DNA of 58,954 bases from Deltaproteobacteria bacterium. GTDB lineage: Bacteria; Desulfobacterota; WTBG01; CAIYCZ01; CAIRTM01. This document shows, one piece after another, positions 3,527-54,485 of this stretch (position 1 is the stretch's first letter; each line of letters starts with the position of its first letter). The stretch is taken from positions 1 through 58,954 of the forward strand of contig VGSH01000002.1 of the NCBI GenBank assembly GCA_016875025.1, written 5' to 3'. The notes beneath the pieces are model-generated. The model was not told where the DNA came from. It was given only the letters and a program-made list of their open reading frames with translations, and made no database searches. The position numbers and the translations under genes were made by a program.

Positions 3527-4006
3527 ATGCATGTATTCGTGATCATCGTGACCGCGCTTCTGATGCTGGCCGGCCTGGCCGGGGCAGTGCTGCCGGTTAT
3601 TCCGGGTCCTGCGCTGGTGCTGGCCGGAGCGCTGCTCTACGGCTGGTACGGCGATTTTGCGGTTATCACCTGGACTGCGCTCGCTGTGCTGGCGGTATTG
3701 ACCGGCCTGAGTTTCGTGCTTGATTACGCGGCCTCGATTATCGGCGCGCGCGCATTCGGTTCCGGCCGCTGGGGCATAATCGGCTCCTGCATCGGCGCCT
3801 GTGCCGGCTTTGTGGTGGCGAACGTTGCCGGCGCCGTTATCGGGATGATCGCCGGGGCCTGCCTGTTCGAGCTTGCCCGGGGCCGCGACCTGCGATCATC
3901 GCTCAAAATCGGATGCGGCACCCTTGTCGGCTTTCTGGCCGGCACGGTCGGCAAAGTGCTGCTCACTCTTGCCATGATCGTGATTGTTGTGCTGCAGCTT
4001 GTGTAG
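3527..4006 (+). CDS. DUF456-like integral membrane protein
   Basis: 159 aa, 4 hydrophobic helices, Gly/Ala-rich. N-terminal LAGLAGAVLPVIPGP is typical of DUF456. Confidence 0.6.
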   Translation: MHVFVIIVTALLMLAGLAGAVLPVIPGPALVLAGALLYGWYGDFAVITWTALAVLAVLTGLSFVLDYAASIIGARAFGSGRWGIIGSCIGACAGFVVANVAGAVIGMIAGACLFELARGRDLRSSLKIGCGTLVGFLAGTVGKVLLTLAMIVIVVLQLV

Positions 4007-4097
4007 TATGTTTTCCGGAGCGCACACCGGTATTTACAATCCGTTCATTATAGGATAGACTCGCCGGATTATTGGATCACCTTTTCAGGATACACCC

Positions 4098-5279
4098 ATG
4101 GATGCACCAGCAGCTGCGCTGCCCGAAAGCGTTACGACACATGTTCTCAAAGATGGGCGCACAGCCTATCTGATCGGAACAGCGCATGTCTCGCGCCACA
4201 GCGTTGATGACGTGCGCGCAACGATTGCCGCGCTCAAGCCCGACGCGGTTTGTGTTGAGCTGTGCCCTGCGCGCCACAGCGCCATGCTGCAGCGTGATAC
4301 CTGGCAGCAGATGAATATTTTCAGGGTTATCAGGGAGAAAAAAGCCGCGTTTCTGCTGGCCCAGCTTGTGCTGAGCTCCTTTTATCGCCGTATCGGCGAC
4401 CAGCTGGGAGTTCAGCCCGGCGCTGAAATGCTTGAGGCCGTGCGCCAGTGCGAACAAACCGGTGCGGCGCTTGTGCTTGCTGACCGGGCGGTCGACATAA
4501 CCCTGAAGCGTGTCTGGTCCGCCTTGTCGCTATGGAATAAACTCAAAATGATGGTGCATCTGCTGGCCGGCCTTTTTGTGACGGAAAAGATAGACGCGCA
4601 GCTGGTTGAGGATATGAAGAATAAAGACCAGCTCGAAAGTATTCTGGCAACGTTTACCGAAGCATTTCCTGAAATCAAGCGCCGCCTGATTGACGAGCGC
4701 GACGCGGTGCTGGCGCACAATATTCGCAGCGCGCCCGGCCACACCATTGTCGCGGTTGTGGGCGCGGGCCATGTGCCCGGCATTGTTCGCAGCCTGGATT
4801 GCGCTGAACGCGTGGATCAGTTTCTTGAACTGCCGCAGCGCTCACGGCTGGGATCGCTGCTGAAATGGTCGATTCCCGTCGGTATCGCCGGTCTGGTTGT
4901 GCTCGGTTTTTTCAGAGGAGGCCTTGACCACACGGTTGAGTCGATTTATATCTGGGTCCTGGTAAACGGGGCGCTGTCGGCTCTGGGCGCCGCAATTGCG
5001 CTGGCGCATCCCCTGACGATTCTGGCATGTTTCGTGGGCGCGCCGATTACCAGCCTGAATCCGATGATAGCCGCGGGATGGGTCGGCGGCCTGGTGCAGG
5101 CCTGGGTGCGCAAACCCACGGTGGCCGACCTTGAGAATCTGCCGGAGTCGATTGCGACATTCGGGGGTTTCTGGAAAAATCCGGCCTGCAGGATTCTGCT
5201 GGTGGTGGTTCTGGCCAATATCGGCAGCTCCCTGGGAACCTTTATTTCCGGCGGCTGGATCTTCGCCCGGGCCATGTAG
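4098..5279 (+). CDS. TraB/GumN (PrgY-like) family protein with C-terminal TM domain
   Basis: YLIGTAHVSRHSVDDV motif and VAVVGAGHVPGI. Four to five C-terminal TM helices. Confidence 0.8.
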   Translation: MDAPAAALPESVTTHVLKDGRTAYLIGTAHVSRHSVDDVRATIAALKPDAVCVELCPARHSAMLQRDTWQQMNIFRVIREKKAAFLLAQLVLSSFYRRIGDQLGVQPGAEMLEAVRQCEQTGAALVLADRAVDITLKRVWSALSLWNKLKMMVHLLAGLFVTEKIDAQLVEDMKNKDQLESILATFTEAFPEIKRRLIDERDAVLAHNIRSAPGHTIVAVVGAGHVPGIVRSLDCAERVDQFLELPQRSRLGSLLKWSIPVGIAGLVVLGFFRGGLDHTVESIYIWVLVNGALSALGAAIALAHPLTILACFVGAPITSLNPMIAAGWVGGLVQAWVRKPTVADLENLPESIATFGGFWKNPACRILLVVVLANIGSSLGTFISGGWIFARAM

Positions 5280-5295
5280 GTAAAGGGATACTGTA

Positions 5296-5631
5296 ATGGA
5301 TATATTTTTCAACAAAGATGACCGCCGCGCCAAGGACCGCTTCCAGGCCAATACCATGGTGCAGTATTTTATCAAACGGCGCAGCCTGCGCTACATGGAC
5401 TGCGAACTGGTCGATGTCAGCCGTAACGGTATTGCAATCCGGGTGCCGCTGTCGGAGGATATTACCACGGGCATGGACGTATCTCTTGAAATAACGGTGC
5501 CGGGCAGTATTGCCCAGATGACGTTTTCGGGCAGAGTGCACCGTGTGCTGCGCGGTGAGAAGATTCTGGCCGGCATAAAGTTTGACAGCGCGCTGGAGCA
5601 GGAGGTGCTTGAGCGGCTGATTGCCAGATGA
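5296..5631 (+). CDS. PilZ domain protein (paralog 1 of a tandem pair)
   Basis: 111 aa. N-terminal RRAKDRF (RxxxR-like) and DVSRNGIAI (D/NxSxxG) PilZ signature. Confidence 0.8.
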   Translation: MDIFFNKDDRRAKDRFQANTMVQYFIKRRSLRYMDCELVDVSRNGIAIRVPLSEDITTGMDVSLEITVPGSIAQMTFSGRVHRVLRGEKILAGIKFDSALEQEVLERLIAR

Positions 5632-15115: not shown

Positions 15116-17770
15116 ATGCAGCGAAACATTCAACATCGCATAATCAGACCTCTGTGGCGCTTCGCGCGCGCGACGAACTTTGCAGCCGTGTTCGGCCACG
15201 CACGGGCTCCGGTAGCGCTTCCAGCGGGGTTTGACTGGAAATTCTACCTTGATTTTTACCCCGACCTGCGCAAAGCGGGCCTGCGGACTGAGCAGGATGC
15301 GGCTGAGCATTACAGGTGGCACGGATTTTTTGAAAAACGTTTCACCTGTGCGCCTGATCATTACCTGATGGTCCGTCATGATGCTATCCGGCGCCGCCAG
15401 CTTCAGAATATTGCAGCTTTTAATGAACAGCACGTTCAAATTATTAAAAATGAGGCTGCTGCCGTTCAAATAGCCGTATCAGTGGTGATCAGCCTCTATA
15501 ATTACGGGCAGTATATTGAAGCCTGTCTGCGCTCTGTTCTGCAAAGCAGCCTGAAGGATATTGAGATCATTATTGTTAATGACGCTTCAACCGACAATTC
15601 GCTTTCGCTCTGCCGCAGACTTCTGGACTGCCCTGTACCAGTAACCATTCTCGACAAGAGCATCAATACCGGGGTGTCGCACTGCCGGAATATGGCAATC
15701 CGTCAGGCCACAGGCGATTATGTTTTTATTCTGGATGCTGACAATGAGATATATTCCGACTGTTTTGCGGAGCATCTGGCCTGCATGCGCGCTGATGCTC
15801 AGCTCGTAGCCTGCTACGGCGTGATAGATCTTTTTGATGAGTCCGGGCGTTTCTGCGGCCAGGTTTCCGATGCTCCATTTGATGTCGGTAAACTGCTGCA
15901 GGGCAATTATATCGATGCCATGGCCATGTTCGAGCGCCGGGCACTGATCGACATCGGCATGTACGATGAAAAACTGCTTGAGCAGGGCATCGGCTATGAA
16001 GATTACGAACTCTGGCTCAGGATAGGGCGGCAGGGGAAAAAAGTCGGCTGCATCGAGCGCCCGCTGAGCAGGTATCTTCAAAAAAATGAATCGATGGTAG
16101 CCGTGTCCAACCGCTTTTATCGCAGACCTCTGGTGGCATGGATACGGCAGAAATATTCGCCGCATAGTGTGACGGGCCGCAGGACTGCCGTGCTGGTCGT
16201 CGGGATGCACCGCAGCGGCACGTCGGCCCTGGCAGGGGTGCTCAGCCTTATGGGTGCGTATCCGGGCTTGGACCTGATCGGCCCGGAACGCTCAAATGTA
16301 AAGGGACATTTCGAATCCAGAAAAATTGTCGCGCTCAACGACGCATTGCTTGATGTCCTGGGCGCACGTGCACCTGAATCCGGCGATTTGCCCGCGGACT
16401 GGCTGGGGTGCGAAGAAACGCGCCGGGCCGCGGAGAGTTTAAAAAAAATTATTTCTGATGAGTACAGCGGACGGGAAATTTTTATGATCAAGGACCCGCG
16501 GCTATGCCTGCTGCTGCCCCTGTATCACGACATTCTGAACGAGCTGGAAATCGATGTCAGGGTTGTCGCGATACGGCGGGACGTGCGCGAGGTTGTCGAG
16601 TCCCTGTATGAACGCGATCGGTTGCCGCATGAACGCGGCCGTGCATATTATGAAAAACACATCAGAGCGCTTGACCATAATCTGGCAGGGCTGCAATTCA
16701 TTTCGGTCACCTTTGACCAGCTGATCGAAACTCCCGGTGCGGTTATGGAAACAATCCGGGCGTTCATTCCGTGTCTCTCGGCAGGTGACATCCCGGGCCT
16801 TGATTGCCAGATCGGGCAGTTTATCGAACCGGGTCTTCGCCACCACAGCATCCGCACGGCACAGAGCCCTGCATCAGTTTTTACCATTGTTGCGCGTACA
16901 TGGGATCACCTGTGCGGCAGCGCAGGGGGGCCGGATTTCCTGATTATCGGCGCTCAGCGCGCAGGAACAACCTCGCTGTACCATTACCTGTGCGCGCACC
17001 CGCAGATACATGCGCCTGCCCGCAAGGAACTGCACTGGTTTCATGCCGGTCCGCAGGACGAGGACGGCTATCACAACGGTCACAGGTCCCGGCAGTGGTA
17101 TGAACGCCAGCTTGCCGGTAACGGCAGAATCGCTTTTGACCGTCTGCTGCATCGCAGAAAGCTGACGTTTGAAGCAACCCCGGAGTATCTGTATCATCCG
17201 CTGGTGCCGCAGAAAGTGTTCCAGCTCTATCCGGCTGTCAAAATCATCGTTGTGCTGCGTGATCCGCTTGAGCGGGCCGTTTCCCAGTATTTTCATGAGA
17301 AAAACGCGGGTTTCATAGCGCCGGATCTTTCAATTGAGAAGTATTTCGACCGCGATCGAGAGATTGCTTCTGTGGAGGAGCAGAAGCTGTTGCATGACGA
17401 CGGCTATTTCAGCTTCGAGTTTGAGCACTGCTGTCCGATTGCCAGAAGTAATTACGGCCGTCAGCTCGCCCGATGGCTGCGCTGCTTTTCACGTGACCGG
17501 ATGCTTATTGTGCGAAGCGAGGATCTGTTTCATGATCCGGTTCCGGTTGTGGATGCCGTGTGCGGTTTTCTGGGGATAGCACGCTGTGCCGGCATTCTTC
17601 AAAAAAAGAATGTGGATTGTAACAGCAGCAACCGGCCACGGCTCAGCGACGGGCAGCGTGCACGGCTTCTATCATTTTTCCCCTATGATCTGAGCGTTGA
17701 TAAATTCTGCAGCCCAACGAGTGGTGCACTACAGTCTGTGCCGTCCGGCGAACCCGGCGGTTGCTCTTGA
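15116..17770 (+). CDS. Triple-domain protein: family-2 glycosyltransferase + two sulfotransferase domains
   Basis: GT2: VSVVISLYNYGQYIEACLRSVL...IIIVNDASTDNS...ILDADNE. Sulfotransferase A: VLVVGMHRSGTSAL. Sulfotransferase B: FLIIGAQRAGTTSLYHYL plus VVLRDPLERAVSQY (5'-PSB and 3'-PB PAPS-binding motifs). Confidence 0.85.
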   Translation: MQRNIQHRIIRPLWRFARATNFAAVFGHARAPVALPAGFDWKFYLDFYPDLRKAGLRTEQDAAEHYRWHGFFEKRFTCAPDHYLMVRHDAIRRRQLQNIAAFNEQHVQIIKNEAAAVQIAVSVVISLYNYGQYIEACLRSVLQSSLKDIEIIIVNDASTDNSLSLCRRLLDCPVPVTILDKSINTGVSHCRNMAIRQATGDYVFILDADNEIYSDCFAEHLACMRADAQLVACYGVIDLFDESGRFCGQVSDAPFDVGKLLQGNYIDAMAMFERRALIDIGMYDEKLLEQGIGYEDYELWLRIGRQGKKVGCIERPLSRYLQKNESMVAVSNRFYRRPLVAWIRQKYSPHSVTGRRTAVLVVGMHRSGTSALAGVLSLMGAYPGLDLIGPERSNVKGHFESRKIVALNDALLDVLGARAPESGDLPADWLGCEETRRAAESLKKIISDEYSGREIFMIKDPRLCLLLPLYHDILNELEIDVRVVAIRRDVREVVESLYERDRLPHERGRAYYEKHIRALDHNLAGLQFISVTFDQLIETPGAVMETIRAFIPCLSAGDIPGLDCQIGQFIEPGLRHHSIRTAQSPASVFTIVARTWDHLCGSAGGPDFLIIGAQRAGTTSLYHYLCAHPQIHAPARKELHWFHAGPQDEDGYHNGHRSRQWYERQLAGNGRIAFDRLLHRRKLTFEATPEYLYHPLVPQKVFQLYPAVKIIVVLRDPLERAVSQYFHEKNAGFIAPDLSIEKYFDRDREIASVEEQKLLHDDGYFSFEFEHCCPIARSNYGRQLARWLRCFSRDRMLIVRSEDLFHDPVPVVDAVCGFLGIARCAGILQKKNVDCNSSNRPRLSDGQRARLLSFFPYDLSVDKFCSPTSGALQSVPSGEPGGCS

Positions 17771-29709: not shown

Positions 29710-30231
29710 CTATGATGGGTCAGGCGTTTTGTCTTCCTGGCTTCTGCCAAAGTCGTCGCCCTGCAGGTCAATGAATACAAATCCAGTGATGAAATCAAGG
29801 ATTTCAAAAAAACCGATGCCGATATTCACACCTGCGATCAGGGGCTGTGCTTCCAGGCCCACCTCGAGGGGGTCGTAATATGGCGAACCTTCGCTGGCGT
29901 CGACAAGACTTACCTGCGCGCCGGCACGGTTATCAAACCCCAGCGGCCAGGGGATTTCTTTCTCACCGCGGGGGCCGCGCAGCCCGACGTAAAGACTGCT
30001 GTGTACACCAGCGTAGCCTGAAAGTAATTCTGTGGCTCGCACACCGGCGGATATGCCGGGTCCGACTCGTAAACGAAAACGAACAATATCAAGCAGGTCA
30101 AACACCCGGTTGGGGATATAACAAACAATGCTTGTGATGACGCCTGCTTCTGCACGGGCAGGACGCCCCATCTGGGCAAGGGTGCACAAAATGGTAAGTA
30201 ACATGATCAAGACAATACATGGTTTTTTCAT
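29710..30231 (-). CDS. Hypothetical secreted protein
   Basis: Signal peptide MKKPCIVLIMLLTILCTLAQ. Gly-rich beta-like body. Confidence 0.55.
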   Translation of the reverse strand: MKKPCIVLIMLLTILCTLAQMGRPARAEAGVITSIVCYIPNRVFDLLDIVRFRLRVGPGISAGVRATELLSGYAGVHSSLYVGLRGPRGEKEIPWPLGFDNRAGAQVSLVDASEGSPYYDPLEVGLEAQPLIAGVNIGIGFFEILDFITGFVFIDLQGDDFGRSQEDKTPDPS

Positions 30232-30437
30232 TCTGTCCGTCCTTTCTCAGGCTCGTGGTGATTGTTGGAAATACGCCCATACATGTGTTTTTTGCCGGAG
30301 CATACACCGCGTCAGGCATACGAAGCAAGCATAAAAAACGTTCAGGGAAATGCGGATAAAAAGGTTGCGAGCGATATTGTTTGCGGGTTACAATGGTATC
30401 TATTATACACCATCGGTACATTGAAGGAGTAGCGCGG

Positions 30438-31055
30438 ATGAAAATCATGGCAGTTATCGGCAGCCCCCGCAGGGGCGGCAACACCGAATTTCTGGTTGAG
30501 CGTGTTGCGCAGGGTGCTGCAAGCTGTACGGATATTGAGCTGGACACGCTGTTTGTCGCGGAACACAATATCGGCTACTGCGCCGGGTGCCTGACCTGCA
30601 CCTTTCCGCCGCCGGGCGCCAAAGCATGCCCCCTGCCGGATGACATGCCCGGCATCCTTGAGCGTATGGCCGCCTGCGAGGCTTTTATTTTCGGCACACC
30701 CAATCACATGCGCACCGTGAGCGCGCCGCTGCTGACGTTTTTCTCGCGCCTGCTGCCCCTCATGGAATTCATCCCTGACATAAATGCCGAAGGCCGTATC
30801 ACCGGCGGCGGTTTCACCTCGCGGCTCAGCGGGCGCAGGGCTGCTATCGTTGTCAGCCAGGGCGACCCGGTGTTTTCATCCGCGCTGGTGCACGCCGTGC
30901 TTGAGCGCAACCTGATCGATCTGGGAATGACGCGGGTGGGTGACGTTATCAGCCGCGGCAACATGGGGCCGCAGGATGTGCGCGCCAAAGCCGATGACCT
31001 GAAGGAGGCTTTCCAGCTTGGCGTTAATCTGGTTACCATGACCGGCATGCGCTGA
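30438..31055 (+). CDS. Iron-sulfur flavoprotein / NADPH-dependent FMN reductase family
   Basis: GAAGGAG SD. MKIMAVIGSPRRGGNT flavodoxin-like start. Compact Cys cluster GYCAGCLTC...KAC typical of Isf proteins. Confidence 0.75.
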   Translation: MKIMAVIGSPRRGGNTEFLVERVAQGAASCTDIELDTLFVAEHNIGYCAGCLTCTFPPPGAKACPLPDDMPGILERMAACEAFIFGTPNHMRTVSAPLLTFFSRLLPLMEFIPDINAEGRITGGGFTSRLSGRRAAIVVSQGDPVFSSALVHAVLERNLIDLGMTRVGDVISRGNMGPQDVRAKADDLKEAFQLGVNLVTMTGMR

Positions 31056-31105
31056 GTGCTGCCGGTGCAGCATGGCACATCCGCTGTGCGTTGAAGGAGG
31101 AACGA

Positions 31106-31783
31106 ATGGATCAGCTTAAAGACACAATGCTTGCCATGATTCAGCAGCGCTATCCCCTTGAACCGACATTCGTACCGGAGGATTTGCGTTCTATCCGGCT
31201 TCCGCTCGGGTTTATGACGCTGCAGCTTGACAACTGGCGCGCTTCCAAGGTGCGCAAAGTCAATGTTATGCGCTCAAGCGTCAAGTTTCCTCGCCTTGAA
31301 ATTCTGGCATTGGAGATATACCCGGCGAGCTGTTATGACATACCGCTGCTGGCGATTGACTTTTCCTGCATGAAGAAAAAGTCGTTCATCTACATGAACT
31401 TTATTCCTCTGTTTACGGACAGGCCGTACCTCCAGCGCTATGTCGAGCGGCTGCGCCCCGTGGTGAGCCGCTATGCGATCGGACCTCCTGCAAAACCCAA
31501 GGAGTGGATGCAGCCCTTTCTGACCGACTGCAGCATATACGCCATGGCAGATAACAGCCTGCTTGCAAAGGCTCATGCCTGCGCCCTTGACTGTCTGGGC
31601 TGCTACCTTGACCTGCTCGATGGGGCTGTTCCGGTTGATGAGCCCGGCTATGCGCAGCAGGTCGCCGCGGCAAGCCTGCAGTACTGCGATCAGCTGAGCG
31701 AAAAGGACGGCTCGCGCAAAATGCTCGGCAGGTTTATCGGCATGGACAGGGCAAATCGGATTTTTAATGAGGTGATACGGTAG
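31106..31783 (+). CDS. Ferredoxin-dependent bilin reductase (FDBR/PcyA-HY2 fold)-like protein
   Basis: GAAGGAGG SD. By-eye alignment to PcyA: VRKVNVMRSSVKFPRLEILALEIYPASCYDIPLLAIDFS...IYMNFIP vs [39 protein letters not shown]...AIADLSP. C-terminal LQYCDQLSEKDGSRKMLGRFIGMDRANRIFNEVI vs [34 protein letters not shown]. Confidence 0.65.
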   Translation: MDQLKDTMLAMIQQRYPLEPTFVPEDLRSIRLPLGFMTLQLDNWRASKVRKVNVMRSSVKFPRLEILALEIYPASCYDIPLLAIDFSCMKKKSFIYMNFIPLFTDRPYLQRYVERLRPVVSRYAIGPPAKPKEWMQPFLTDCSIYAMADNSLLAKAHACALDCLGCYLDLLDGAVPVDEPGYAQQVAAASLQYCDQLSEKDGSRKMLGRFIGMDRANRIFNEVIR

Positions 31784-31814: not shown

Positions 31815-32750
31815 TCAGGATTTATGGGGAGCCGGTGCAACAGGCTCGGGAATCGTGACGCCGTAGAGGTTGTCTGCAGGCGGGGTCCCCCTGCGCTCCA
31901 TTGATACAACACAGGTCTGCGCGCTGGGTCGGCCGCGCCGGTTGAGGGCCACCAGTGATTGAATGATCTCCCGGCTCAGGTAATTATTGTTCGCCAGCTC
32001 AGTGAGTTCTTCAAGGGCGGTGCGATTTTCAAATGATGCGGAGCGGTAGGGCCGGAGCGAGACAAGCGCGTCGTATATATCGCAGGCGGCGATGATTTCC
32101 ACGAGCAGATCACTGAGTTTTTTCCCTGCGGGATATCCCGTTCCGTCCGGACGCTCATGGTGGTCACGGGATATGCGTGCTGCAGGGGCATTCATGTCGC
32201 CGTCGGCCCAGGCCAGCAGCGCGAAGCCGGCCGTCGTATGATGTTCAAGATGCCTGCGCTCCTCTGCGGTAAGGGCCGTGCTTTTGGAAAGAATTGACAA
32301 GGGTATACTTGTTTTCCCCAGATCGTGGCTGGGGCCGGCTGCCATGATCTCCTGTTCGAGGTCAAGGCCGGGTACGGCAAGATGGCGGGCGAGCAGAATT
32401 GACAGCGCAAATACCATAAGCGCGTGACGATAGGTGTAGATGTCTTTCCTCCGGAAATAGTCCAGCGATTCAAGCACGATGGGTTGAACCCTGCGGTTTT
32501 TCATCAGGGCCAGAACTGCATCACGATCGGCAGGATTGGCGTAGATGGCGCTGTAGGGAGGCTGGCTCATCATGTCCAGCATATCATTGAACACGGAGCC
32601 GTGCTTTAAAAGGTACGCATATTCTCCCGCAGGCTGCGGGTGCTGCTTGCGGGCTTCCTGAATGGTTTTTTCAGACAGCTCTGCCCCGGCCGCATATAAC
32701 TCAGTGCCGTCCAGCGTTGTGACCGGATAGTTGAGCATCAATGTCTTCAT
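31815..32750 (-). CDS. HD-GYP domain protein (c-di-GMP phosphodiesterase family)
   Basis: HDLGKTSIP and HHERPDGTGYPAG canonical motifs, ACDIYDALVSLRPYR. About 130 aa of unassigned N-terminal domain. Confidence 0.88.
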   Translation of the reverse strand: MKTLMLNYPVTTLDGTELYAAGAELSEKTIQEARKQHPQPAGEYAYLLKHGSVFNDMLDMMSQPPYSAIYANPADRDAVLALMKNRRVQPIVLESLDYFRRKDIYTYRHALMVFALSILLARHLAVPGLDLEQEIMAAGPSHDLGKTSIPLSILSKSTALTAEERRHLEHHTTAGFALLAWADGDMNAPAARISRDHHERPDGTGYPAGKKLSDLLVEIIAACDIYDALVSLRPYRSASFENRTALEELTELANNNYLSREIIQSLVALNRRGRPSAQTCVVSMERRGTPPADNLYGVTIPEPVAPAPHKS

Positions 32751-50047: not shown

Positions 50048-51031
50048 ATGGCGCGTGAGAACAAAAAAACGGATTTTATACTTGACGAAGAGAAGTGTAT
50101 CGGATGCGGCATCTGCATTGATGCCTGCCCGCTTAAAATTCTCGAGATTGTGAACGGGCTCTGCATCATGACCGATGCGACCAAATGCCTGGAGTGCGGA
50201 ACCTGTATCCGTGAATGTCCGCAGGATGCCATTACAATACCGGGGGTAAAGGTTTCATCGAAAACCGGCTCTGATGCTCCGCGAGCAGCCTCCGCGCCCG
50301 TCGTTAAGGGCGATGAAAAGTTCACCCCCATTCTGCAGCATCTTACCGATATGCTGATGCAGGAGCTCGCTTCGGAGCAGATTTTTGAGCATGCCGGGAC
50401 GGACATCCGCAGTCTGGAGGAGTTTGATGTTGAGGGCCACAGTTGTTTTTACCGTGCCTACAAAGCACCCAAGCTTGAGAAAATCGGCTTGTCGAGGATG
50501 AATTTTTACGGCACAATGGTGGCTGACGTGGTGGTTGTAACGCCGGCTGCCAACTATGATATTCCCTATTATATCATGGACTGGGATGAGTCCGATGAGC
50601 ACATTTTCTTCATCTGCGACCTCATGTCGGGCGATGACGTCGGCCGCAACCAGCAGATGCTGCAGAAATATTATTATGAGCCGCTTGAGGACCTCTATCA
50701 GGAATTCGCAGCCATGCCGGGCATGCGGCCGAGCGTGTTTCACTGGGTGCGGGCGCTGCATTCGCCCTATATTATCACCGGCACGGTTGAGAAAAACCCT
50801 GAAAGCGTGGCCGGTATTTTCAAGTGCGCGGTTGACTATTTCAACGCCTGGCTGAATATTTACAAAGCAGCGCAGCCCCGCGACCCGCAGTCGCCGGAAA
50901 TGCGGCTTATCAATGAGCGCCGCCGTCAGATCCGGGCGGTCTACAAGGAAAATGATCCGGGAGTCGGCTCGCTCAACAAGTTCCTGGGAGACAAGATGGC
51001 CGACATAGCCCTGTCGATTATCGAGCCATAA
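50048..51031 (+). CDS. Fusion protein: 2x[4Fe-4S] ferredoxin domain + FDBR (bilin-reductase fold)-like domain
   Basis: CIGCGICIDACP and CLECGTCIRECP. After a Ser/Ala/Pro linker: FYRAYKAPKLEKIGLSRMNFYGTMVADVVVVTPAANYDIPYYIMDWDE...FFICDLMS, HSPYIITG, and C-terminal YKENDPGVGSLNKFLGDKMADIALSII. These align by eye with PcyA blocks. Confidence 0.65.
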   Translation: MARENKKTDFILDEEKCIGCGICIDACPLKILEIVNGLCIMTDATKCLECGTCIRECPQDAITIPGVKVSSKTGSDAPRAASAPVVKGDEKFTPILQHLTDMLMQELASEQIFEHAGTDIRSLEEFDVEGHSCFYRAYKAPKLEKIGLSRMNFYGTMVADVVVVTPAANYDIPYYIMDWDESDEHIFFICDLMSGDDVGRNQQMLQKYYYEPLEDLYQEFAAMPGMRPSVFHWVRALHSPYIITGTVEKNPESVAGIFKCAVDYFNAWLNIYKAAQPRDPQSPEMRLINERRRQIRAVYKENDPGVGSLNKFLGDKMADIALSIIEP

Positions 51032-51103
51032 TGTCCGGACGTGTGAGCGCAGTTGCATGATTCGTGATTGAGTCGGCTGAAAAACGTACGGAAGGGTTAT
51101 GCT

Positions 51104-53035
51104 ATGCATACCACTGCACAGGCCTCGGGCTGGGCCGGCACTATCGCGCATGTTGATCTAACGCAGCGGTCGGTACAAACTATCGAAACCGCTCGCTACA
51201 GCCGCGACTATATCGGCGGGCTGGGCATGAGCCTGCGCCTGTACCGGGATATGGCCCGGCCTGATGCGGATGCGTTTCATCCCGACAGCCCGCTGCTGTT
51301 CATGACCGGTCCGCTGGCAGCCACGCCGGCGCCGAGTGCCTCGCGCCTTGTGGTGTGCGGCAAGTCGCCCTGCGTATTTCCTGAGCACTTCGTTTCGGCA
51401 AATCTGGGCGGTTTCATTGCCGCTGAGCTCAAAAAGGCCGGCTATGACGGCCTGGTCGTGACCGGCCGGGCCGACAGCCCGGTATACCTGCATATTCAGG
51501 ACGGCACCATCGAGATCCGATGCGCCCGGCACCTGTGGGGGCAGGGCAACTATGCCACCCGGGAGCGCCTGCTGCGCGATCACGGCAGCCGCTCCCGCAT
51601 GCTCTCGATCGGCCCGGCCGGAGAAAACCGGACCCGCATCGGCATTGTGTTCTCTGATGCCGGCAGCTGCGCCTCAATGGGGTTCGGTTCGGTCATGGGT
51701 TCCAAACATCTCAAGGCCGTGGTCGTGCAGGGCAGCGGCAGCATCGGGGTTGCCGATCCTGATGCTATCAAACATATCCGGCAGACCTATCGTGCCATGA
51801 CCGGCCAGGGGTATTTTCACCTGTTCAACAAGCCGATCGTGCTGCCCGGGGCAACGGTGCAGAAGAAGGTGCACTGCCACGGCTGCCCGCAGGGCTGCTG
51901 GAGGTCACTGCACCGCAGCCCGGAAGGCCGCGAGGATGTGCGCAAATGCCAGATCGGCAATTTCTACATGCTGTGGGACAAACAGCTGCACGGCACGTTT
52001 ACCGAGGCAAGCTTTGAAGCTCCCACCATGGCCAATGATTACGGCGTGTGTGCCATGGACATGGTGTTCATCCTGCTGTGGCTTGACCGCTGCCGCTCGC
52101 AGGGCCTTGTAACGCAGGCTTCCACAGGCCTTGCATTTGATCAGATGGGCAGCCGGGAGTTTCTCGATGATGTGCTCAAAAAAACTTCGCTGCGACAGGG
52201 CTTTGGCGATCAGCTGGCTGAAGGCCTGCTGCGGCTCTCCCGCTCAGTTGGAGGAGAGGCTCAGACCATTGCCGAAAACATGCTGACTGAGAGCGGTCGG
52301 GCGATCGCCTACGGGCCGAAAGTATTCGCCATGGCAGCGCCCATTTACGCGACCGAGCCGCGGCCGTGCATCACTGAGCTGCATGAAATCTGCGAACCAC
52401 TGACCAAGTGGGCTCGCTGGCATCTGTCCGGCGGCACCGAGGGCTATATGTCGACCGATGTGCTGCGGCGTATTGCGCAAGCTTTCTGGGGCAGTTGCGA
52501 GGCCGTGGATTTCAGCACGCATGCGGGCAAGGCCCTGGCAGCCGTCAAGGTGCAAAACCGCCAGTTTATAAAGGAGTCGCTCAACCTGTGCGATTTCGCC
52601 TGGCCGGTGTATGATGCCGCTAATACGCCCGATCATGTCGGTGATCCCGATCTGGAGCGCACGCTGTTCACGGCCGTGACCGGCATTGATGCGACGCGCG
52701 ATGATTTTGACCGCATCGCCGGGCGGCTCGTGACCCTGTACCGCTGTATTCTGCTGGGAGAAGGCCGCAGCGACGACACCCTGCCCGAATTCATGTTCAT
52801 CGAGCGGCCCGAGATGATCGCTGATGTGTTCGGCATGTATAATCCGGAGCTGTATCTTCCCGGCAGCGGTGCGGAGATCATCTCGCGCAAGGGCAGGGCG
52901 CTCGACCGGGAGCAGTTTGCGGCCATGATGGATGAGTACTACGAGCTGCGTGGATGGGATGTGCAGACCGGTCTGCCGAAGCCTGAGACCCTGCAGCGGC
53001 TCGGCTTGAGCGCGCAGCCGCAGAACTGCTCCTGA
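51104..53035 (+). CDS. Aldehyde:ferredoxin oxidoreductase (AOR) family tungsto/molybdopterin enzyme
   Basis: GWAGTIAHVDLT, YIGGLGMS, GPAGENRTRI, GSVMGSKHLKAVVV (AOR N-terminal domain). CHGCPQGC cluster motif. Start set at ATG 51104 behind GGAAGGG. Confidence 0.85.
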   Translation: MHTTAQASGWAGTIAHVDLTQRSVQTIETARYSRDYIGGLGMSLRLYRDMARPDADAFHPDSPLLFMTGPLAATPAPSASRLVVCGKSPCVFPEHFVSANLGGFIAAELKKAGYDGLVVTGRADSPVYLHIQDGTIEIRCARHLWGQGNYATRERLLRDHGSRSRMLSIGPAGENRTRIGIVFSDAGSCASMGFGSVMGSKHLKAVVVQGSGSIGVADPDAIKHIRQTYRAMTGQGYFHLFNKPIVLPGATVQKKVHCHGCPQGCWRSLHRSPEGREDVRKCQIGNFYMLWDKQLHGTFTEASFEAPTMANDYGVCAMDMVFILLWLDRCRSQGLVTQASTGLAFDQMGSREFLDDVLKKTSLRQGFGDQLAEGLLRLSRSVGGEAQTIAENMLTESGRAIAYGPKVFAMAAPIYATEPRPCITELHEICEPLTKWARWHLSGGTEGYMSTDVLRRIAQAFWGSCEAVDFSTHAGKALAAVKVQNRQFIKESLNLCDFAWPVYDAANTPDHVGDPDLERTLFTAVTGIDATRDDFDRIAGRLVTLYRCILLGEGRSDDTLPEFMFIERPEMIADVFGMYNPELYLPGSGAEIISRKGRALDREQFAAMMDEYYELRGWDVQTGLPKPETLQRLGLSAQPQNCS

Positions 53036-53055: not shown

Positions 53056-53180
53056 GCCTGCCGCACGTTTTTTTCCTTGAAAACACCCCCGCTAAGCTAT
53101 TTAATACTCTCACAGCAGGTTAGTGGCCGGCTTTCGGACGCCCTGCCGGTCGTATGCTTTTGCGCAGGAAGGTGTATGTG

Positions 53181-54485
53181 ATGCAGCAGACACACACGCT
53201 CATACTCGGGGCCGGTCTTGCAGGACTGTCGGCGGCGTATCATCTGGACGGGCATGAGTATCTGGTGATTGAAAAGAACAGCTCTCTCGGCGGCCTGTGC
53301 ACAAGCGAGGAAAAGCAGGGTTTTGTGTTTGATCAGACCGGGCACTGGCTGCACATGCGCGATGAGAACATGCAGCGGCTTGCTGCCGCGCTGCCGGGTC
53401 TGGACCGGGTCACAATTGAGCGCCGGGCCCATGTTTTTTCGCACAACACCATTACCTGCTACCCGTTTCAGTCGCACACCTTCGGCCTGCCCCCGCAGGT
53501 CATCAGAGAATGCGTGCTGGGCTTTATCCGCGCGCGATATGAAAGCGACCGCTCGCGGCCGCCGGCAAACTTTTACGAGTGGTGCATGGCCAACCTCGGC
53601 GAGGGCATTTCCCGCCATTTCATGATTCCCTACAATTCAAAGCTCTATACCGTGCATCCGCGGGAGTTCGCCTGCCACTGGTGCGATACCTATATACCGG
53701 TGCCGACCATCGAACAGGTCGTGGACGGCGCGCTTACCGATCCTGAGCATGACAGCGCAGGCTATAATGCGACCTTCAGCTACCCGCGCAGCGGCGGCAT
53801 CGGAGCGCTGCCGGAGGCTCTTTTCAGCCTGTGCCAGCCGGAGCGTTTTTTGTTTAATGTGCATCCTGTTGCCATCGATATGCAGCGCAGGATTGCGCGC
53901 CTTGCGAGCGGCGATGAGATCGCTTTCAAGACGCTGATCAGTACCATTCCCCTGCGGGATTTTCTGCAGCTTGTGCGCTGTGGCGGGTCCGACCGGCTGC
54001 ATGAGGCTGCCGGCCGCATGAAAATAGCATCGGTCAGCTATTATAATGCCGCTTTTAAAACAGCGCCCGCGCATCCGGGTCACTGGTTCTACATTCCCGA
54101 AGAGCGCTTCATGCCCTGCAGGGTCGGTTTCTACAGCAATGTGCATGAGGGCATGGTCCCTCCGGGGTGCTCGTCGGCCTATATAGAATACACGCATCAG
54201 GGCCCCCTTGCCGATGAGGGCGCCTTCAGGAGCGCAAGCGTGGAGCTGCTGCTGCAGATGGGCCTTTTTGCAAGCGCCGATGATATATTGTTCATGGACT
54301 ACCGCCTGATTGAAAACGGTTACGTCATCTTCCACCGGGAGTATCCCGAGGATATGCAGATGATCGAGCGTTGGTGCCGGGAAAGCGGTGTTGTGCTTGC
54401 CGGCCGCTACGGCCGCTGGGTTTATTCTGCCATGGAGGATGCCGTGCTGGACGGCATGCGCGCGGCTGAAACGGTGCGGGGCTGA
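53181..54485 (+). CDS. FAD-dependent oxidoreductase (amine-oxidase / UDP-galactopyranose-mutase / protoporphyrinogen-oxidase-like fold)
   Basis: Dinucleotide-binding start LILGAGLAGLSAAYHL...VIEKNSSLGGL and C-terminal LAGRYGRWVYSAMEDAV. Subfamily cannot be decided by eye. Confidence 0.7.
   Translation: MQQTHTLILGAGLAGLSAAYHLDGHEYLVIEKNSSLGGLCTSEEKQGFVFDQTGHWLHMRDENMQRLAAALPGLDRVTIERRAHVFSHNTITCYPFQSHTFGLPPQVIRECVLGFIRARYESDRSRPPANFYEWCMANLGEGISRHFMIPYNSKLYTVHPREFACHWCDTYIPVPTIEQVVDGALTDPEHDSAGYNATFSYPRSGGIGALPEALFSLCQPERFLFNVHPVAIDMQRRIARLASGDEIAFKTLISTIPLRDFLQLVRCGGSDRLHEAAGRMKIASVSYYNAAFKTAPAHPGHWFYIPEERFMPCRVGFYSNVHEGMVPPGCSSAYIEYTHQGPLADEGAFRSASVELLLQMGLFASADDILFMDYRLIENGYVIFHREYPEDMQMIERWCRESGVVLAGRYGRWVYSAMEDAVLDGMRAAETVRG

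Follow-up and report, generated by a model that had tools for sequence, protein, structure and literature searches.

A bilin reductase-fold protein of a probable deep lineage in uncultured Thermodesulfobacteriota and its lineage-specific flavoprotein neighbor

The products of ferredoxin-dependent bilin reductases (FDBRs) serve as the chromophores of phycobilisomes and phytochromes, and FDBRs take electrons one at a time and need one-electron donors. The window analyzed here, i.e., the whole stretch of 58,954 nt, carries FDBR-like genes of an uncultured, sulfate-reducer-type bacterium from a lineage of presumed anaerobes, in which an O2-dependent heme oxygenase is unexpected. If the 225-aa proteins of the family under study are active, the question arises as to which substrate a bilin-reductase fold would have where O2-dependent biliverdin is unexpected, a point relevant to what the FDBR family did originally. 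A second question is whether the flavoprotein gene directly upstream encodes a dedicated electron donor. The gene under study and its key residues are located as follows.

31106..31783, + strand: FDBR-like gene, 225 aa, FDBR-family protein of a probable uncharacterized deep lineage
31093..31100, + strand: Shine-Dalgarno sequence GAAGGAGG of the FDBR-like gene, read from the sequence, 5 nt before the ATG
31307..31309, + strand: Ala68 codon, equivalent of PcyA His88 by HMM alignment; residue kept in at least 90% of family members
31358..31360, + strand: Asp85 codon, equivalent of PcyA/PebS Asp105 by HMM alignment; invariant in 78 sequences
31706..31708, + strand: Asp201 codon, equivalent of PcyA Asp220, HY2 Asp256, and PebS Asp206 by HMM alignment and Table 2 of PMC13446030; invariant in 78 sequences

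The ORF reads from the ATG at 31106 to the stop at 31783 over 225 aa. An earlier note on this DNA had placed it there, together with the ORF 30438-31055 upstream; both positions agree with the sequence, the spacing of 50 nt between the two genes is exact, and the Shine-Dalgarno sequence described as strong is present. The peptide blocks it quoted are likewise all found, namely VRKVNVMR, LEILALEIYPASCYDIPLLAIDFS, IYMNFIP, and LQYCDQLSEKDGSRKMLGRFIGMDRANRIF in the translation of the FDBR-like ORF and GYCAGCLTC...C in the upstream one. A TTG at 31091 was considered as an alternative start and rejected because the full-length homologs, all of approximately 225 aa, start at the Met of the ATG at 31106, which also follows the Shine-Dalgarno sequence.

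By profile and fold, the 225-aa protein belongs to the FDBR superfamily. The Pfam family Fe_bilin_red (PF05996) matches it with 84.4 bits (E 1.3e-23; gathering cut-off 31) in an alignment spanning profile positions 3-225 of 228, and its AF2 model (pLDDT 95.9) shows the alpha/beta/alpha sandwich with a central antiparallel sheet. Foldseek comparison of this model yields TM scores of 0.90 for PebB, 0.91 for HY2, 0.87 for PebA, and 0.81 for PcyA, all 46 of the 46 significant matches being FDBR or RCCR. Sequence matches among PDB chains are FDBRs only, and the best E value for PebB improves from 9e-11 with the single sequence to 1.6e-19 with the family profile. The claim that the resemblance to FDBRs goes beyond chance is thus borne out by the profile and by solved FDBR structures (TM 0.81-0.91), and the HMM and structure searches assigned the protein to no unrelated fold.

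Conservation within the family is high. Across 78 full-length homologs, the mean column identity is 73% and 36 columns are invariant, including D85 and D201, which lie in the likewise invariant motifs LLAIDFSxMKKK and SEKDGSRKMLGRF. The family as a whole is under strong purifying selection. Residue equivalences were obtained by HMM alignment to Synechocystis PcyA. As the earlier note had read from the sequence, the Asp105 equivalent is retained (D85, within the AIDFS block) and the His88 equivalent is Ala (A68). Furthermore, Glu76 of PcyA corresponds to M55, and D201 lies in SEKDGSR, which corresponds in the alignment to EKDPAR in PebB and to ERDPAH in PebA, so that the second catalytic Asp of the PebA/PebB/PebS/HY2-type FDBRs is present as well. 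The active-site signature of the family at PcyA positions 76/88/105/220 is therefore Met/Ala/Asp/Asp. In PebA, PebB, PebS, and HY2-type enzymes, this acidic pair acts as the proton donors. Since the His88 position is Ala while the Asp105 equivalent is kept, a chemistry unlike that of PcyA is predicted, as had been suggested. Among the FDBRs tabulated in PMC13446030, an Ala beside the catalytic Asp, at the Asn/His position, has no characterized precedent.

The same residues bear on the possibility that the 225-aa protein has kept the fold but only binds or carries tetrapyrroles, without catalysis. The Ala beside the catalytic Asp, as opposed to the His or Asn of characterized enzymes, would fit such a role, and the Asp105 equivalent is missing altogether from a sister clade; PcyA-like domains moreover serve as structural subunits of the Ycf2-FtsHi complex, which appears among the fold matches (8xqw, 8xks). 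However, the invariance of D85, D201, LLAIDFSxMKKK, and SEKDGSRKMLGRF over 78 sequences argues for retained catalysis, and a carrier role is considered highly improbable.

Comparison with known FDBRs places the family apart from all characterized types. PebB, HY2, and PebA (6qx6, 6kme, 2x9o) share the alpha/beta/alpha fold with the 225-aa protein (TM 0.87-0.91), are of similar size, likewise consist of a single domain, and are its best PDB sequence matches, yet the identity is only 18-22%. Both catalytic Asp residues are common to the 225-aa protein and to PebS (D105, D206) and HY2 (D256), whereas the PcyA His88 position is Ala in the former and Asn in the PebB/HY2/PebA type. Its scores with the NCBIfam equivalogs (31-56 bits) stay far below the respective cut-offs (206-327): NF009720, NF009723, and NF009722, the equivalogs of the PebB/HY2/PebA type, give 56, 51, and 38 bits against 263, 327, and 283, and NF002760 (PcyA) gives 31 bits against 206. 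On these scores, orthology with PcyA, PebA, or PebB was rejected. Furthermore, the host belongs to a non-photosynthetic lineage of presumed anaerobes, unlike the hosts of PebB, HY2, and PebA, and the gene context, again unlike theirs, includes neither phycobiliproteins nor a phytochrome nor a heme oxygenase. PcyA shares the fold (TM 0.81) and the Asp105 and Asp220 equivalents with the 225-aa protein; the two differ in Glu76 (Met55) and His88 (Ala68). In a neighbor-joining tree, the core clade of the 31106 protein has a bootstrap value of 100 and the superclade of the 225-aa family one of 90, and the sequences labeled PcyA, PebA, and PebB, the PcyA group among them, fall outside the 225-aa clade.

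The pre-PcyA lineages are, like the 225-aa family, FDBR homologs of non-photosynthetic bacteria, and the origin of FDBRs has been traced to heterotrophic bacteria, beside heme oxygenase and bilin-binding globins (PMC10151467, PMC13446030). Their signatures in Table 2 are Ala/Asn/Glu/Ser for pre-1, Val/Asn/Asp/Asp for pre-2, and Ala/Thr/Asp/Arg for pre-3, with Ala/Asn/Asp/Asp for PebS (PMC13446030), and their defining gene contexts are heme oxygenase, Fe-S, two V4R, and globin (BBAG), or a B12-binding protein and globin (PMC10151467; PMC13446030). Pre-2 shares with the 225-aa family both the Asp/Asp pair and the 116-residue spacing from Asp to Asp, but the signatures of all three lineages differ from Met/Ala/Asp/Asp. 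Gene clusters of the pre-PcyA type were absent from the homolog neighborhoods examined, and the pre-PcyA hosts are Myxococcales and diverse aerobes, in contrast to Thermodesulfobacteriota for the 225-aa family. Membership in pre-PcyA lineages 1-3 was rejected because neither the active-site residues nor the neighboring genes agree with theirs; the tree is neighbor-joining only, lacks the named pre-PcyA references POZ53557, MCC5789364, CAP_1520, and MBL9008304, and contains pre-1-like and pre-3-like sequences recognized by residue signature only.

All nine of the nine genome loci of the family derive from Thermodesulfobacteriota/delta-proteobacterium MAGs, and members at NCBI include MCK5513836, MBW2553526, and MCK5009014. 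PMC13193486 mentions two "uncharacterized" clades, one of which may be this family. The literature searched yielded no specific report of a bilin reductase from Desulfobacterota or any other anaerobe. The reading we prefer, to which a probability of approximately 55% is assigned as a whole, is that ORF 31106-31783 encodes a soluble, functional FDBR-fold enzyme and that the 225-aa clade constitutes its own uncharacterized deep lineage, seen only in uncultured Thermodesulfobacteriota MAGs; it is drawn from sequence and from the structural model. Such an enzyme would be supplied with electrons one by one, by a flavin or Fe-S donor of low potential, and would reduce, with two electrons, a C=C bond of a propionate-bearing conjugated tetrapyrrole; the most economical guess is that it reduces a bilin at the A-ring or at 15,16, in the manner of PebA, PebB, or HY2. 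The family is distinctive in that it occurs in presumed strict anaerobes only, keeps both catalytic Asp residues, has no heme oxygenase or globin context, and co-occurs with several deeply divergent FDBR-like paralogs.

The question of the electron donor leads to the gene upstream, which is laid out as follows.

30438..31055, + strand: FMN_red gene, 205 aa, flavodoxin-fold FMN reductase family; Pfam FMN_red E 2.5e-17
30423..30429, + strand: Shine-Dalgarno sequence GAAGGAG of the FMN_red gene, read from the sequence, 8 nt before the ATG
30365..30394, + strand: sigma-70-like promoter candidate TTGCGA-18-TACAAT upstream of FMN_red; 9 of 12 consensus positions
30579..30629, + strand: Cys cluster C48-x2-C51-x2-C54-x9-C64, candidate Fe-S ligand set of the FMN_red protein
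31056..31105, + strand: intergenic gap between FMN_red and the FDBR-like gene, 50 nt, with no promoter-like or terminator-like site

The FMN_red ORF runs from the ATG at 30438 to the stop at 31055; a TTG start at 30381 was rejected, given that the ATG agrees with the homologs and follows a Shine-Dalgarno sequence. Promoter candidates in the region are as numerous as expected by chance, so that the site at 30365..30394 is a weak one. The AF2 model (pLDDT 92.3) has its best Foldseek matches in AzoR, YwqN, SP1951, flavone reductase, NQO2, and WrbA (TM 0.6-0.7). Among the more than 100 homologs, which are 204-206 aa in length, three of the cysteines (C48, C51, C64) never vary and at least 90% of sequences also have C54, the motif CX2CX2CX9C being found in 107 of 109; model confidence is lower in the loop of residues 51-60. 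The conserved four-Cys motif may hold an Fe-S cluster.

The description of this gene product in the earlier note as a flavodoxin-fold FMN_red protein with a compact Cys cluster stands on the Pfam match, the model, and the homologs, but its designation as Isf-like is not borne out. Isf, with the Methanosarcina thermophila protein as prototype, does share the Pfam family FMN_red, a flavodoxin-like fold, a length of approximately 200 aa, a compact N-terminal CxxCxxC...C, and an anaerobic host with the upstream protein. The last Cys spacer, however, is 9 residues in the upstream protein against 5-7 in Isf, for which the motif is CX2CX2CX5-7C, also quoted as X4-7 (PMC3164229). Among PDB chains, no Isf structure was matched at E of 10 or below, whether by phmmer with the protein itself or by a search with the profile of its family, and none is among the best 50 Foldseek matches of the model; the sequence, profile, and fold searches gave flavone reductase, YwqN, and azoreductases instead, and on this basis Isf identity was set aside. 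The nearest characterized relatives are stand-alone two-electron FMN reductases. The N-terminal domain of flavone reductase FLR/Cd1 (7d38) is the best sequence match (E 4e-15 with the family profile, the Cys-rich stretch included), and flavone reductase and AzoR-type azoreductases are the best fold matches; the upstream protein nevertheless lacks the C-terminal substrate-binding tail of FLR (~100 residues, needed for flavone activity), and azoreductases lack its Cys motif. Isf itself, according to Cruz and Ferry in 2006, reportedly oxidizes ferredoxin and reduces O2 and H2O2, and it is not known as a donor to biosynthetic enzymes.

Co-transcription of the two genes is plausible because they lie on the same strand, 50 nt apart, without a terminator-like site, and the FMN_red and FDBR genes of the paired clade are probably co-transcribed, the gap in related loci being 50 to 120 nt. 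An RNA element or attenuator was considered and discarded: the region has no Rfam matches, and the 7-bp hairpin that the gap can form does not exceed shuffled sequences in stability (z 0.65).

FMN_red lies upstream of the FDBR gene in 12 of 12 loci with an FDBR identity of at least 75%, all of which fall within the syntenic block ORF29710 - FMN_red - FDBR - HD_5 - TPR. The proposal of a dedicated partner stands to this extent and fails outside it: an FMN_red gene is near FDBR in none of approximately 20 loci at an FDBR identity of 70% or below, and in the reverse test no FDBR gene adjoins the FMN_red orthologs of 66% and 55% identity. Beyond one clade, therefore, the pairing is not conserved in related genomes, an outcome that the earlier note had itself named as speaking against its proposal. 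Since the whole neighborhood is syntenic in the paired clade, the linkage of the pair carries little independent weight. From these comparisons, the adjacency is read as lineage-specific and inherited with the surrounding synteny, and not as a two-component module by which the family could be defined.

It follows that the FMN_red protein may possibly serve as a partner of the FDBR, while the stronger version, in which it is an Isf-type [4Fe-4S]/FMN protein acting as dedicated low-potential donor within a functional two-gene operon, is unlikely. Several observations favor the latter. The co-oriented pair survives local changes in its clade, among them an inserted DUF1302 gene upstream and, in locus L027, the loss of the downstream HD_5 gene; the four Cys are nearly universal among FMN_red homologs; in loci L023 and L024, the other FDBR paralog type is preceded at 40 nt by a distant paralog of FMN_red, which is 30% identical and also has four Cys; a PNPOx-type flavoprotein is found near FDBR in other clades; and a ferredoxin is fused to the protein throughout the second-paralog family. 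Set against them are the absence of the pair at lower identity in both directions, the synteny, the Cys spacing, the lack of any Isf match by profile or among the best 50 fold matches, and the nature of the nearest relatives, which are self-sufficient two-electron reductases, whereas FDBRs require one-electron donors. On present evidence, "Isf operon" should not be propagated in annotation as a functional module.

Further redox genes accompany a second FDBR-like gene in the window.

50048..51031, + strand: second FDBR paralog, two 4Fe-4S Fer4 domains fused to an FDBR-like domain; Fe_bilin_red 44 bits
51068..53035, + strand: gene of the aldehyde:ferredoxin oxidoreductase (AOR) family, following the second paralog; AFOR_N 4e-61, AFOR_C 4e-44

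Pairwise alignment of the 31106 and 50048 paralogs, both of the FDBR family, gives an identity of only 21%, and the clade of the second paralog (bootstrap 100) is separate from that of the first in the neighbor-joining tree. Its ferredoxin fusion is kept in approximately 80 homologs, down to 43% identity. The AOR gene had been proposed as the partner of this paralog, but relatives of 70%, 63%, and 51% identity have no AOR gene beside theirs, and AOR was rejected as a conserved partner. Of the recurring logic by which each FDBR would have its own redox partner, the conserved ferredoxin fusion remains, as does the recurrence beside FDBR-like genes of ferredoxin domains, AORs, and small flavoproteins of differing kinds; the partner, however, changes between lineages.

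With respect to the substrate, no heme oxygenase, globin, V4R, or phytochrome (GAF/PHY) gene is present among the annotated genes of the window or in 12 Pfam-annotated homolog neighborhoods, so that gene context in neither connects the family with biliverdin. This raises the alternative that the FDBR fold is kept for a substrate other than heme oxygenase-derived biliverdin, within a catabolic or detoxifying reductive network and not in chromophore biosynthesis; candidate substrates are a product of anaerobic heme breakdown, exogenous bilins or chlorophyll catabolites of detritus, and a cyclic tetrapyrrole. Recurring neighbors are of xenobiotic- or aromatic-handling types, and comprise azoreductase-like FMN_red, PNPOx/Nim-like protein, MarR, EamA exporter, AOR, Zn-ADH, SDR, phosphotriesterase-like protein, arylsulfotransferase, and Phenol_MetA_deg porin. 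Some MAGs carry at least four FDBR-like paralogs, and in one of them three of the at least four genes form one cluster and one has a signal peptide. In addition, the FDBR relative RCCR, found among the fold matches, reduces a chlorophyll catabolite. Pre-3 variants are able to bind porphyrins (PMC13446030). On the other hand, the neighborhoods are heterogeneous and contain no recognizable tetrapyrrole-specific enzyme, both Asp residues are placed as in true bilin reductases, and the search for heme oxygenase covered neighborhoods, so that one may lie elsewhere in the genomes. A non-biliverdin role is accordingly regarded as rather doubtful. The PNPOx-like neighbor was also considered as a HugZ-type heme-degrading enzyme, a candidate rejected because its only solved relatives are Rv2991 and Mll6688, whose function is unassigned.

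A wider interpretation, offered tentatively and with considerable reserve, is that the radiation of FDBRs in Thermodesulfobacteriota, with its 225-aa, ferredoxin-fused, secreted, and membrane-anchored types, might form a heme oxygenase-free anaerobic system that reduces conjugated pigments, linear tetrapyrroles or others, supplied by phototroph detritus or by the anaerobic breakdown of heme, with interchangeable flavoproteins, fused ferredoxins, and AORs feeding in electrons. If true, it would show a role of the FDBR fold, perhaps the original one, without O2-derived biliverdin.

As regards the relatives of the preferred functional enzyme, a sister clade has lost the Asp105 equivalent, so that they need not all be reductases.

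ORF A, the upstream FMN_red gene, and ORF B, the gene under study, which resembles ferredoxin-dependent bilin reductases (FDBRs), are co-oriented on the plus strand with an intergenic gap of 50 nt, in a window of 57% G+C, and are flanked by one divergent and one convergent gene:

29710-30231, minus strand, divergent gene flanking the pair
30438-31055, plus strand, ORF A: ATG 30438 to stop 31055, 205 aa, GAAGGAG 8 nt upstream
31106-31783, plus strand, ORF B: ATG 31106 to stop 31783, 225 aa, GAAGGAGG 5 nt upstream
31815-32750, minus strand, convergent HD_5 gene on the other flank

The ATG starts of both ORFs are confirmed by their homologs, all of which begin at the same Met, and each peptide block quoted in the earlier note is found in the translations. 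Across the window, FDBR-like ORFs number exactly two, and a single gene belongs to ORF A's FMN_red family. The gene at 29710-30231, divergent to the FMN_red gene, codes for a 173-aa hypothetical protein that is conserved, carries a signal-like sequence at its N-terminus, and has no match in Pfam; the gene is syntenic in most clade relatives (65-82% identity).

ORF B encodes a true FDBR-family protein, which is structurally canonical and conserved. It matches Pfam Fe_bilin_red with an E-value of 1.3e-23 and 84.4 bits (cut-off 31), covering nearly the full model. Matches of the single sequence in the PDB are FDBRs only, i.e., cryptophyte PebB (9e-11), PebA (3e-7), and PcyA (3e-6), and the family profile retrieves PebB (1.6e-19), PebA (9e-14), and PcyA (1e-6). 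The AlphaFold2 model, obtained with 78 homologs as input (pLDDT 95.9, pTM 0.92), resembles HY2 (Foldseek TM 0.91), PebB (0.90), PebA (0.87), PcyA (0.81), and RCCR (about 0.78), and all 46 significant Foldseek matches belong to the FDBR/RCCR fold family. Because the Pfam, PDB, and Foldseek matches all point to the FDBR fold, assignment to an unrelated fold fails, and the FDBR-like identity proposed previously stands.

Active-site residues were mapped by HMM alignment to Synechocystis PcyA, the numbering of which agrees with the known H74, E76Q, I86, H88, D105, D220, and V225. PcyA H74 and E76 correspond to N53 and M55 of ORF B, H88 corresponds to A68 (at least 90% conserved in the family), and D105 and D220 (equivalent to HY2 D256 and PebS D206) correspond to D85 and D201, both of which are invariant in 78 sequences. 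The earlier reading of a retained Asp105 and a His88-to-Ala replacement was therefore right, and the family retains, in addition, a second Asp as proton donor, as is usual in PebA, PebB, PebS, and HY2. The motifs LLAIDFSxMKKK and SEKDGSRKMLGRFIG are nearly invariant across the family. The family signature, Met/Ala/Asp/Asp, differs from those of PebS (Ala/Asn/Asp/Asp), pre-1 (Ala/Asn/Glu/Ser), pre-2 (Val/Asn/Asp/Asp), and pre-3 (Ala/Thr/Asp/Arg) (Table 2, PMC13446030). ORF B was also considered as a PcyA, PebA, or PebB ortholog and rejected, with NCBIfam equivalog scores of 14-56 bits against cut-offs of 206-327.

A word-indexed search recovered 85 relatives of ORF B, nearly all of 225 aa, which are named in their sources either "hypothetical protein" or (JGI) "15,16-dihydrobiliverdin:ferredoxin oxidoreductase"; all nine loci in species-representative genomes belong to uncultured Thermodesulfobacteriota or "delta proteobacterium" MAGs. 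An exhaustive profile search of 1.84 billion representatives yielded 256 matches, with the core ORF B family as one 50%-identity cluster and about 20 more clusters below 1e-30. A neighbor-joining tree was built from 112 sequences, as a distance tree that does not include the named pre-PcyA references, and was anchored by NCBIfam labels above cut-off (P0423, PcyA; P0340, PebB; P0330, PebA). The core family forms a clade (bootstrap 100) nested in a superclade (bootstrap 90) whose proteins are roughly 225 aa long and include no labeled PcyA, PebA, or PebB sequence, and the ferredoxin-fused paralog family forms a separate clade (bootstrap 100). Pre-1-like (Asn/Glu/Ser) and pre-3-like (Thr/Asp) sequences, known by signature, are placed elsewhere than the ORF B family. 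Within the superclade, the Asp105 equivalent is replaced by Phe, Leu, or His in a sister group (P0312-P0329 and P0356) that keeps the second Asp, a change suggestive of a shift in function or of lost catalysis. Pre-PcyA FDBRs are known and active in heterotrophic bacteria, and are partly defined by clusters with heme oxygenase (HO), Fe-S, V4R, and BBAG globin genes, or with a B12-binding protein and globin (PMC10151467, PMC13446030); two further FDBR clades have no characterized member (PMC13193486), and the ORF B family may be one of them. A literature search for FDBRs in Desulfobacterota or other anaerobes found no linking paper. ORF B thus represents a distinct, uncharacterized FDBR lineage in uncultured Thermodesulfobacteriota; its active site is Asp/Asp, and Ala replaces His88. 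At one relative's locus, L049:3917-4576, the FDBR homolog is interrupted, so that two adjacent ORFs (3917-4282 and 4286-4576) make it up; the break may come from a frameshift, in-frame stop, or assembly error, or mark a pseudogene.

The product of ORF A matches Pfam FMN_red (2.5e-17); its family comprises over 100 proteins, each 204-206 aa long, and 107/109 members keep the motif C48-x2-C51-x2-C54-x9-C64. The AF2 model (pLDDT 92.3) is less confident in the Cys loop only, and its Foldseek neighbors, AzoR, YwqN, SP1951, flavone reductase, NQO2, and WrbA (TM 0.6-0.7), are FMN-dependent two-electron reductases. Flavone reductase FLR/Cd1, a stand-alone FMN ene-reductase, provides the best sequence match through its N-domain (4e-15 with the family profile). 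No iron-sulfur flavoprotein (Isf) chain was detected among PDB sequences with either the single sequence or the family profile, and the last Cys spacer of 9 residues lies outside the Isf motif definition, CX2CX2CX5-7C (PMC3164229). On the basis of the fold neighbors, the FLR match, the lack of an Isf chain, and the x9 spacer, ORF A encodes a Cys-rich FMN reductase with a flavodoxin fold, which may bind an Fe-S cluster; its supposed Isf membership is reduced to a resemblance.

Conservation of the pairing was surveyed in genome loci, metagenome loci, and exact-protein look-ups, with six-frame ORFs scanned using HMMs of both families. FMN_red lies directly upstream in all 12 loci with an FDBR at least 75% identical to that of the window (L004, L005, L025-L033, and the window), which share the block ORF29710 - FMN_red - FDBR - HD_5 - TPR with small local changes only and FMN_red-FDBR gaps of 50 to 120 nt. 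By contrast, FMN_red is present in none of about 20 non-redundant loci with sufficient upstream sequence and an FDBR at most 70% identical, and no FDBR lies within 5 kb of the FMN_red orthologs at L017 (66% identity) and at L018 and L019 (both 55%). Conservation of the pairing therefore holds inside one narrow clade and breaks down outside it. The adjacency is real but clade-specific, so that a dedicated-partner role of ORF A is unsupported as a family trait, and inside the clade the pairing is not independent of general synteny. Because the 50-nt gap contains no terminator-like site, co-transcription of both ORFs in the narrow clade would be plausible. L005 additionally carries short UvrC-like fragments (5048-5396; 57-64% identical), about 1.4 kb from full-length uvrC; a partial duplication has probably left these fragments behind.

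Other 225-aa FDBR genes have different neighbors. In a larger second subclade (58-60% identical), many loci (L002, L003, L010, L011/L015, L016, L038, L041-L043, L046, L047, and L051-L053) share the block EamA - PNPOx-like (Pyridox_ox_2) - GIY-YIG (91 aa) - (hyp210) - FDBR - hyp191 - (MarR) - AOR (aldehyde:ferredoxin oxidoreductase), in which neither hyp191 nor hyp210 matches a Pfam family. A third group neighbors phosphotriesterase-like, cupin, PNPOx_N, Zn-ADH, WYL, or arylsulfotransferase genes. A 264-aa membrane-anchored Fe_bilin_red paralog with Gly at the second Asp position is encoded at L015:1005-1799 (the L011:3966-4796 region), upstream of the 225-aa gene by 5 kb, and groups with an N-terminally anchored FDBR-like clade (P0344, P0371, P0398, P0400, and P0402).

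The second paralog of the window is followed by two further genes:

50048-51031, ferredoxin-fused FDBR-like gene (Fd-FDBR)
51068-53035, AOR-family gene
53154-54485, Amino_oxidase/NAD_binding_8 flavoprotein gene

Its Fer4 fusion is kept in homologs with as little as 43% identity. The AOR neighbor is missing at 70% (L058/L059), 63% (L020-22), and 51% (L023/24) identity, and does not qualify as the conserved partner previously proposed. In L023/24, the gene 40 nt upstream of Fd-FDBR encodes a distant FMN_red paralog (30% identical to ORF A, CxxCxxxCx7C; L023:5340-6975). An Amino_oxidase-type gene is also located near Fd-FDBR in L023/L024, and a third, very divergent Fe_bilin_red gene begins at the locus end (L023:12500-12975). 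Furthermore, three Fe_bilin_red genes form one cluster in GCA_028282925.1 (L058:1367-9673 / L059:370-7164), encoding an Fd-fused protein of 326 aa, a 234-aa protein, and a 263-aa protein with a signal peptide, the latter two with Asn at the Asp105 position and an ATC_hydrolase gene between them. Flavodoxin, Phenol_MetA_deg, PNPOx, MarR, SDR, and FAD/CCG oxidoreductase (FAD_binding_4, CCG) genes lie on its flanks. FDBR-like genes number at least four in this MAG, which is also the source of L008/L014.

Small flavoproteins, ferredoxin domains, and AORs thus recur near FDBR-like genes, which loosely supports redox enzymes fed by low-potential donors; of the recurring redox-partner logic suggested earlier, the recurrence persists but the partners are interchangeable. 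No HO, globin, V4R, GAF/PHY, or other tetrapyrrole gene was found among roughly 40 window genes scanned or in the Pfam-annotated homolog neighborhoods, and the neighbor repertoire looks as much like xenobiotic/aromatic handling as chromophore biosynthesis. In the putative reaction of ORF B, a one-electron donor would drive the two-electron reduction of a bilin-like tetrapyrrole. Elsewhere in the window, 15116-17770 encodes an 884-aa fusion of a family-2 glycosyltransferase domain and a sulfotransferase domain.
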